From a bacterium (GTDB lineage Bacteria; Patescibacteriota; Microgenomatia; CAZETR01; Amesbacteraceae), in contig JAUSIY010000044.1 in the NCBI GenBank assembly GCA_030647735.1, positions 1-53,707 of the forward strand: a stretch of DNA of 53,707 bases, written 5' to 3'. The notes under the pieces were generated by a model. That model ran no database searches. It saw only the letters and a list, made by a program, of their open reading frames with translations, and was not told the DNA's origin. Positions within the stretch are counted from its first letter, which is position 1, and each line of letters opens with the position of its first letter. Of this stretch, positions 24,859 through 25,004 are shown one piece after another. The translations under genes were made by a program, and so were the position numbers.

Positions 24859-24989
24859 AAAAAAGCCCTGGCAAATTTTCGAACTTAAACTATTCGAAAA
24901 CTTACAAGGGCCAATTAGGCGGTGCCACCTTGATATTTTACTCTTTAACTCTCTGGCTCCCCGGCTCCAACCCTCCGGATCAGCGCTGC
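24859..24989 (-). promoter_or_regulatory. T-box-like leader RNA (antiterminator/terminator switch) upstream of trpS
   Basis: Minus strand AAGG-UGGCACC-GCC-UAAUU-GGC-CCUU (24931-24906) overlaps the 5' arm of a long hairpin (24912-24865) that is followed by UUUUUU (24864-24859). UGG-A sits in the loop of an upstream hairpin (24978-24961). Confidence 0.6.
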
Positions 24990-24995
24990 AATTGT

Positions 24996-25004
24996 ATTAT
25001 ATCA
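24996..25004 (-). promoter_or_regulatory. extended -10 promoter (TGATATAAT) of the trpS leader
   Basis: The reverse complement of 24996-25004 is TGATATAAT. The TGA is also the stop codon of the upstream nuclease gene. Confidence 0.5.

Follow-up and report, generated by a model that had tools for sequence, protein, structure and literature searches.

T-box riboswitches serve as a model system for the recognition of one structured RNA by another. In canonical class I members, the AG bulge and the distal loop of Stem I form interdigitated T-loops, a platform which binds the tRNA elbow, and Stem III is flanked by a purine string, 5'-RRRxG...AA-3'. A shorter design is known from the ileS leaders of Actinobacteria (Mycobacterium tuberculosis, Nocardia farcinica), which belong to the translational class II. 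Here Stem I consists of a kink-turn (K-turn) base and a short helix whose terminal loop holds the specifier codon and the purine 3' of it, and there is no platform for the tRNA elbow. The element described in this work is the leader of trpS, the gene for tryptophanyl-tRNA synthetase, in a contig of 53,707 nt (JAUSIY010000044.1 of assembly GCA_030647735.1, hereafter the window) from a member of the Amesbacteraceae (Patescibacteriota, Microgenomatia). It has neither the class I platform nor Stem III with its purine string, of which purine-rich flanks remain, and shares with the ileS leaders the K-turn base with a short helix, the specifier and purine in the terminal loop, and the lack of a platform. 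Judged by sequence comparison, the leader is a genuine T-box of a new minimal form. It probably acts as a tRNA-Trp-sensing riboswitch that works by transcription attenuation and is reduced to two recognition modules. An earlier note on this DNA had proposed a T-box with a reduced Stem I. Every motif it had placed was recovered base for base on the minus strand, and the reduction turned out to be larger than noted, as Stem II, the IIA/B pseudoknot and Stem III are absent as well.

The leader is approximately 150 nt long and lies on the minus strand, to which all leader coordinates refer; Stem I, linker, antiterminator and terminator together occupy 24988-24859. Transcription would start a few nucleotides 5' of Stem I, from a putative extended -10 promoter, TGATATAAT (24996-25004), read from the sequence, in which the upstream SNase-like gene has its TGA stop. 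A consensus promoter scan of the window did not list this -10 box, since it has no -35 match, and a consensus terminator scan of the window missed the leader terminator because its loop exceeds the limit of the scan. A TATAAT or TAGAAT hexamer was found 10-20 nt 5' of Stem I in seven of the related loci, which are designated with L numbers (L005, L009, L018, L089, L096, L107, and L123). The ultrashort Stem I (35 nt, 24954-24988) was delineated by comparative pairing and covariation, and reads from 24986 to 24956 as GC-GCU-GA-U-CCGG-AGGGUUGGAG-CCGG-G-GA-GC. Its K-turn-like base is built from two basal pairs (G24986-C24956, C24985-G24957), a bulge of three nucleotides (GCU), and tandem G.A/A.G pairs formed by GA 24981-24980 opposite GA 24959-24958, a kink-turn that the earlier note had missed. 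Above it stands an upper helix of 4 bp, CCGG 24978-24975 with CCGG 24964-24961, with a terminal loop of 10 nt, the 3' side of which holds the specifier codon UGG (24969-24967) and the purine A24966. The minimum-energy fold of the single sequence gave an alternative pairing across the Stem I region; the CCGG/CCGG helix is supported by the comparison instead. Stem I is followed by a purine-rich single-stranded linker of 22 nt (24932-24953, the CAGAGAGUUAAAGAGUAAAAUAUC region), which stands in place of Stem II, the IIA/B pseudoknot and Stem III. RNAalifold on the related leaders found no conserved pairing in this linker, neither as a cryptic Stem III nor as a pseudoknot. Its UUAAAG..AGUA resembles the flanks of a Stem III-like hairpin in sister leaders, and the linker may represent a retained purine string.

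The T-box antiterminator (24906-24931) has the form AAGG/UGGCACC/GCC-UAAUU-GGC/CCUU. It consists of helix A1 (AAGG 24931-24928 with CCUU 24909-24906), the 7-nt T-box bulge UGGCACC (24927-24921) and helix A2 (GCC 24920-24918 with GGC 24912-24910), which is closed by the loop UAAUU (24917-24913). The 3' strands of A2 and A1 are also the 5' arm of an intrinsic terminator, a hairpin at 24912-24865 followed by U6 at 24864-24859. When both folds were computed, the terminator reached -31.8 kcal/mol (z = -5.9, with none of 200 shuffles as stable) and the antiterminator, when forced, only -4.3 kcal/mol, in agreement with the earlier claim of a mutually exclusive terminator. A terminator much stabler than the antiterminator is the usual imbalance of T-boxes. 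The distance from the U-run to the trpS ATG (24844-24842) is 15 nt, and pairing of the hairpin with a Shine-Dalgarno sequence is not present. The leader is not an assembly artefact, since 3,265 bases including it were assembled independently from another sequencing run (L124) and are 100% identical.

The 9-mer GGTGGNACC alone was not significant, with one match in the window against 1.5 expected. A covariance model, R2, was derived from 11 leaders, all from other organisms, with the window and its nearest relatives excluded. Against the 53.7-kb window this model gave a single match, 24906-24992 on the minus strand, at 51.4 bits (E = 7.4e-10) and over the full model length. On the Rfam T-box model RF00230 the relatives scored 23-50 bits against a gathering score of 93, i.e., every member of the family falls below the Rfam threshold, with alignments of relatives such as L073 and L005 spanning the whole model. 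The values were 50.3 bits (E = 4e-8) for L073, 47.2 bits (E = 2.7e-7) for L005, 36.3 bits (E = 1.7e-4) for L095, 33.2 bits (E = 1.1e-3) for L088 and 32.3 bits (E = 1.9e-3) for L009; a clostridial trpS leader from Terrisporobacter (L038), used as positive control, reached 119 bits (E = 8.6e-26). In the alignment of L005, GCgaUGA...GGAGC is placed at the K-turn and 12 nt stand in for 78 model positions of Stem I, which bears out the proposed likeness to the ultrashort actinobacterial Stem I. Stem II with AGUA and IIA/B with CCGUAA align as well, and AAGGUGGCACCGCG...CGCCCUU aligns to the T-box sequence and antiterminator, so that the UGGNACC bulge between two helices, claimed from the window alone, was found again in a block which Rfam itself aligns in the relatives. 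Stem I of L005, GAUCCGGAAGGUUGGAGACGGGGAGC, nearly equals that of the window, GAUCCGGAGGGUUGGAGCCGGGGAGC, and the T-box sequence is also common to both. Since the longer relatives align to RF00230 at the K-turn, Stem II, IIA/B and the T-box sequence, the class is homologous to T-boxes. A search for further T-boxes in the window, and for those of other amino acids in approximately 0.9 Mb of related loci, found only Trp elements; canonical T-boxes were seen in the loci L038-L045 and L061, which lie outside the Candidate Phyla Radiation (CPR).

Related leaders were collected as two sets. A protein-based TrpS scan, in which each species was represented by one genome, gave 80 trpS loci (genome set). 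The best TrpS matches came from Candidatus Amesbacteria, with 83% identity to the TrpS of the window, which assigns the window to Microgenomates/Patescibacteria, and the element was found upstream of trpS in six CPR-like loci (L005, L008, L009, L018, L024, and L073). The pattern UUGGR-N6-GAGCY-N15-45-AAGGUGGCACCRC returned 31 loci (metagenome set), two of which were rejected as GC-rich chance matches within coding DNA. The full layout was present in the other 29, and at least 25 had a TrpS homologue about 60-770 nt downstream; these homologues are of two types with a mutual identity of only about 37%. The design is common to more than 30 leaders of Microgenomates and Peribacteria, nearly all of them before trpS. 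Leaders obtained from protein matches, and therefore free of the pattern, are those of the window, L005, L008, L009, L018, L024, L073, and L119-L126. In all of them UGG and a purine occupy the 3' side of the loop of Stem I, i.e., the very site where the earlier note had placed a candidate Trp specifier, UGG with A in a short hairpin loop.

Three forms of the leader were distinguished. Long forms have the ultrashort Stem I, Stem II, IIA/B and a further hairpin (L005, L024, L119-L126, and L073), intermediate forms have the ultrashort Stem I and one hairpin before the T-box (L081-85, L088, L094, L098, L103, and L108), and compact forms have only a linker of 21-29 nt, as measured in 14 compact leaders (the compact forms being the window, L008, L009, L018, L083, L087, L089, L092, L095, L096, L100, L101, L105, L107, and L110). 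The hairpin of the intermediate forms is flanked by AUUAAG ... GAAGAAAGG; in the compact forms the flanks are joined directly, AUUAAGAAGUAAUUAAGG, and the equivalent in the window is UUAAAGAGUAAAAUAUCAAGG. A terminator hairpin reusing the 3' strands of A2 and A1, followed by a U-run, was found in 26 of 31 related leaders, and L082, L102, L111, and L093 have no clear terminator. The Peribacteria-like leader L073 (2785-3010) has no U-run, and its antiterminator 3' strand UCCUU pairs with AAGGA just before the ATG, so that this leader, as the only one, looks translational. In four long forms a GC-rich hairpin with a U-run is located between Stem II/IIA-B and the T-box sequence (L024:1322-1356, L121:3287-3312, L125:2752-2775, and L126:1680-1707); it looks like an intrinsic terminator at the place where Stem III would be. 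In many relatives a tRNA-Met gene on the same strand ends only 5-30 nt before Stem I (e.g., L098:79-155, L094:2855-2928, and L008:1863-1932), and this closeness suggests co-transcription, with the leader 5' end formed by tRNA processing. Two compact Trp T-boxes precede membrane-protein genes. In L085 an open reading frame (ORF) for a DUF554 membrane protein lies 16-721 nt after the leader and is followed by trpS, and in L107 an ORF for an EamA-family transporter lies 159-1032 nt after it. The DUF554 and EamA proteins could plausibly be tryptophan carriers, and their hosts are probably unable to make tryptophan.

Covariation was assessed for a structure of four helices, namely A1, A2 and the two parts of Stem I (base and upper helix). 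When 13 compact leaders were aligned plainly with MAFFT, 98.1% of the cells were paired, with compensatory changes in 9 of 16 pairs. None of 500 column shuffles reached such a value, and sliding the 3' partners by 1-3 columns lowered the paired fraction to 25-61%. In 32 leaders aligned to the model, an alignment fitted to that model, 97.2% were paired and 12 pairs showed compensatory changes. The Stem I upper helix reached 99-100% pairing and used 4-5 types of pair at each position; its variants include CCGG/CCGG, GGAGU/ACUCC, AUCAGG/CCUGAU, CCGCAU/AUGCGG, UCUAAU/AUUAGG, and UAAAUC/GAUUUA. The basal helix of Stem I covaries in the relatives and its GA/GA is conserved. Helix A2 covaries too, with AU, GC or GU at the closing pair, then GC or CG, then GC, AU or UA. 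The sequence AAGGUGGCACC was invariant in both alignments. RNAalifold run without structure input recovered Stem I and A2.

Bacterial tRNA-Trp is usually described as having G73, an identity element for TrpRS, and the C of UGGN in the window had been said to fit this base. This is too simple, since tRNA-Trp of these lineages carries A73 or G73. In L024 a T-box stands before the tRNA-Trp gene, and five more independent loci were found via homologues of the 462-aa ORF beside it. The order T-box - tRNA-Trp - ORF of about 460 aa (ORF46x) - trpS holds in these six Microgenomates loci, and the U-run of the T-box terminator ends 3-12 nt 5' of the tRNA-Trp gene. The spans from T-box to tRNA-Trp are L024:1196-1519, L119:2470-2796, L120:1500-1856, L121:3140-3477 (= L122, L123), L125:2590-2946 and L126:1520-1881, with the tRNA-Trp genes at L024:1447-1519, L119:2723-2796, L120:1782-1856, L121:3406-3477, L125:2874-2946, and L126:1809-1881. 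The variable base of the T-box and the discriminator form a Watson-Crick pair in four of the six, namely C with G73 in L119 and U with A73 in L120, L121 (= L122, L123), and L126; L125 has the wobble pair U with G73, and L024 a mismatch. The U.G combination is used in 46% of Trp T-boxes according to TBDB (PMC7778990). As read from these genes, the tRNA-Trp discriminator varies in these bacteria and the T-box base follows it. The TrpS proteins adjoining A73 and G73 tRNA-Trp genes belong to one family. The antiterminator of L119 (GGUGGCACCGCC...GGCCCUUGUAAG) is the closest to that of the window and goes with G73, and on this ground the tRNA-Trp of the window organism is predicted to carry G73 as well.

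In the six loci the tRNA-Trp would be matured from the readthrough transcript, and when uncharged it would induce both its own gene and that of the synthetase. If this is true, the tRNA controls its own synthesis together with that of its synthetase. In the literature searched, no account of a T-box preceding a tRNA gene was found. Loci encoding TrpS proteins close to that of L024 are syntenic and have neither the T-box nor a tRNA-Trp gene, and tblastn with E. coli L11, NusG, EF-Tu, and L33, which mark the usual neighbourhood of tRNA-Trp, gave no match in any related locus collected. The intervening ORF family (455-471 aa) has no Pfam match and comprises 15 clusters in 5.8 billion proteins; its members are L024:1595-2983 (462 aa) and the homologues P0121-P0135 (among them L119:2877-4265, L121:3544-4920, L125:3001-4404, and L126:1954-3339). 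Wherever the flanks were readable (L024, L119-L123, L125, and L126) the ORF is placed under the T-box, with tRNA-Trp on one side and trpS on the other, and a role related to tryptophan or tRNA-Trp seems likely. The Amesbacteria-like locus L121 has the synteny of the window, XerC - DivIC - tRNA-Met - small ORF - SNase - [T-box] - ... - trpS - tRNA_bind - ftsH, which places the compact leader of the window where L121 has the long T-box, tRNA-Trp and ORF458. In L120:3333-4793, L125:4410-5915, and L126:3353-5065, the N-terminus of TrpS carries a fused domain, either an aminoacyl-tRNA editing domain (PF04073) or a B3_4 domain, and a separate YbaK-like editing-domain ORF lies between T-box and trpS in L018:2543-3001.

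The leader could work in the following manner. Transcription would start at the extended -10 box overlapping the upstream stop codon, and the first approximately 35 nt would fold into the ultrashort Stem I, in which the kink-turn base and the 4-bp helix present UGG and A in the loop. The CCA anticodon of tRNA-Trp would pair with the specifier UGG (24969-24967). The UGGC of the T-box bulge (24927-24924) would be transcribed about 40 nt later, and the 3' end of an uncharged tRNA (predicted G73-C-C-A) would pair with it, by which the weak A1/A2 helices would be stabilised and 24912-24906 sequestered. With the terminator thus blocked, RNA polymerase would continue into trpS, the tRNA-binding-protein gene and ftsH; with the tRNA charged or absent, the stabler terminator would form and transcription would stop at the U-run before the ATG. 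The minimal form would in this manner bind tRNA, discriminate its charge and permit readthrough. The geometry is plausible, as the K-turn redirects the chain and a single strand of 22 nt can reach the acceptor end; in glyQS leaders a linker shorter than that of the window spans this distance. We incline, with modest confidence, to the view that a T-box of approximately 90 nt (134 nt with the terminator) decides co-transcriptionally on tRNA-Trp charging without the elbow platform, Stem II/IIA-B, and Stem III. How the missing contacts might be compensated is a matter of speculation. The purine-rich linker might act as a minor-groove string, the U preceding UGG might form an extra pair with A37 of the tRNA, or slow transcription or a protein helper might contribute. 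A U precedes UGG in the window and in 8 of 10 distinct leaders of pattern-free relatives.

Several points weigh against a functional tRNA sensor at this locus. According to the review by Zhang (2020, PMC7583486), a long Stem I platform is required for transcriptional T-boxes, a truncated Stem I without Stem II binds tRNA poorly, and Stem III "is indispensable for function"; the leader of the window has none of the three. The same review names the G.U pair closing A2 as the main steric sensor, and the closing pair by the bulge in the window is G-C, where most compact relatives have A-U. Helix A2 of the window has only 3 bp, and its basal Stem I helix has two mismatches (A.C and C.A) at outer pairs which are present in relatives. 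The search with RF00230, proposed as a check in the earlier note, gave no match in the window at the gathering score nor at E <= 10, and only sub-threshold matches in the relatives; we read the null result as a limit of the 219-position model and not as absence, because relatives match it in full length below threshold. No leader whatever is present in L001-L004, the closest four among the trpS relatives, so that the distribution is patchy, and the expected conservation among related trpS leaders was found in the element and its covarying pairings but not in these four. The retrieval pattern had fixed UUGGR, GAGCY, and AAGGUGGCACCRC, which makes the invariance of these motifs in the 29 metagenome leaders circular and limits the independent evidence of that set to helices, terminators and downstream genes. 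The window contains no tRNA-Trp gene, its tRNA genes being two for tRNA-Met and one for tRNA-Ile(UAU). Finally, the T-box of L024 has C against A73, in a degenerate bulge, UGGCAAA.

The main alternative is that the leader is an evolutionary relic of a full T-box such as those of L005 or L121, no longer sensing tRNA and acting as a constitutive leaky terminator which keeps basal trpS expression low. The domains that are missing are those needed for tRNA binding according to structural and biochemical work (PMC7583486), the copy in the window shows a weakened basal Stem I, a 3-bp A2 and a G-C rather than a G.U or A-U closing pair, its closest relatives manage without a leader, and L024 demonstrates that decay of the bulge occurs in the family. 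However, a terminator needs neither specifier nor bulge, and these should have been lost first, whereas UGG with its purine, GA/GA, and UGGCACC are intact in the pattern-free leaders of the window, L008, L009, and L018, with compensatory substitutions in Stem I. The compact design also recurs in lineages whose TrpS is 65-73% identical or of a different type. Because the design persists across distant lineages, in which specifier, K-turn and bulge are intact and compensatory changes occur, we rate such decay below tRNA sensing and regard it as unlikely. To a T-box dependent on a helper, in which a protein supplies the contacts of the platform, Stem II or Stem III, we give little credence. The candidates would be an L7Ae-type K-turn binder, for which the conserved K-turn-like GA/GA base speaks together with the suggestion that K-turn proteins aid T-boxes with suboptimal K-turns (PMC7583486), or the tRNA-binding-domain protein of the operon, since the order trpS - tRNA_bind is conserved behind these leaders; the same gene follows trpS also in relatives without a T-box, hence this linkage is not specific to the riboswitch. 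That the hairpin is merely the terminator of the SNase-like gene or a generic attenuator, with T-box words by coincidence, is hardly credible at all. The expected 1.5 occurrences of GGTGGNACC per window and the lack of an Rfam T-box match in the window would be in line with it, but the R2 match is unique in the window, the same composite stands before trpS in dozens of other genomes, and relatives align to the Rfam T-box model. The covariation in both alignments, the R2 match and the Rfam alignment of L005 effectively refute it. A tRNA-Trp-sensing T-box is thus the reading which we prefer.

The trpS gene (333 aa, 23843-24844, minus strand; Pfam tRNA-synt_1b, PF00579, E = 7e-61) is followed on the same strand by the gene for a tRNA-binding-domain protein (109 aa, 23517-23846; PF01588), which overlaps the trpS stop by 4 nt (23843-23846), and further downstream by ftsH (21624-23504). 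The three genes probably form one transcription unit, and their order is conserved in relatives with or without a T-box. Upstream lies the SNase-like gene (25002-25589, minus strand; Pfam SNase), which ends in the TGA inside TGATATAAT. Farther upstream of the trpS region are tRNA-Met(CAU) genes at 26286-26356 (minus strand) and 26412-26485 (plus strand), and a tRNA-Ile(UAU) gene is located at 27791-27863 (plus strand). The latter was found at the syntenic place in many relatives (L006, L008, L009, L012, L084, L088, L090, and L112-L118). A tRNA-Ile(UAU) is uncommon in bacteria, where AUA is usually read by a lysidine-modified CAU tRNA. The earlier note had stated that most operon-first genes of this DNA start within a few nucleotides of their -10 box. 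In a crude check this held for about half and not for most, the start codon following a -10-like hexamer at a distance of 0-9 nt; the gene starts concerned are at 9134, 9948, 12287, 15820, 30680, 32465, 35535, and 37807. Such spacing is consistent with leaderless or near-leaderless mRNAs, and against it the trpS leader of about 150 nt stands out.

Our literature searches, which covered open-access papers only, found no paper connecting T-boxes with the Candidate Phyla Radiation, Patescibacteria or named candidate phyla, so the host group is new for T-boxes within the literature searched, and the earlier remark that a T-box in a CPR genome would be notable is consistent with these searches. The family of the window appears to break three structural rules at once, i.e., the long platform, Stem II with a short Stem I, and Stem III, and it is nevertheless conserved, covarying, placed before a fitting gene and tuned to the tRNA end, in bacteria with tiny genomes. 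If the reading is true, this is a true minimal T-box, and peripheral domains held to be indispensable are dispensable or replaceable. If the element works, it offers the smallest natural scaffold to study or engineer tRNA-sensing switches, a direct means of telling the essential contacts from the others, and a rare cis-regulatory handle in Patescibacteria, for which there is no inducible expression system yet (PMC11665869). It would also be a warning that Rfam-based and TBDB-style surveys miss a whole class.

As a kind of regulator the T-box is known, but a transcriptional form in which Stem I is ultrashort and Stem II, IIA/B, and Stem III are all absent is not known from the literature searched. 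Each of the described systems shares a different part of its design. The canonical trpS T-box of Firmicutes, as in Terrisporobacter (L038), has the same target gene, the UGG specifier, the UGGN bulge and a terminator, and its TrpS is 62% identical to that of the window; about 130 nt of this canonical leader are missing in the window, and L038 matches RF00230 where the window does not. The glyQS leaders of Bacilli are transcriptional and naturally lack Stem II and IIA/B, and like the window they have the terminator/antiterminator pair and a single-stranded linker after Stem I; unlike the window, they have the long T-loop platform of Stem I and a Stem III with purine string, both of which have been called required (PMC7583486). 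From the actinobacterial ileS leaders the window differs in lacking Stem II (S-turn), the IIA/B pseudoknot, and Stem III, of which Stem II and IIA/B are kept also by the long-form relatives L005, L024, L119-L126, and L073. The output differs as well, being sequestration of the ribosome-binding site in ileS and an intrinsic terminator with U-run in the window, and so do specifier and host, Ile in Actinobacteria and Trp in Patescibacteria. In both, the ultrashort Stem I is combined with a T-box bulge and A1/A2 helices of the same kind.

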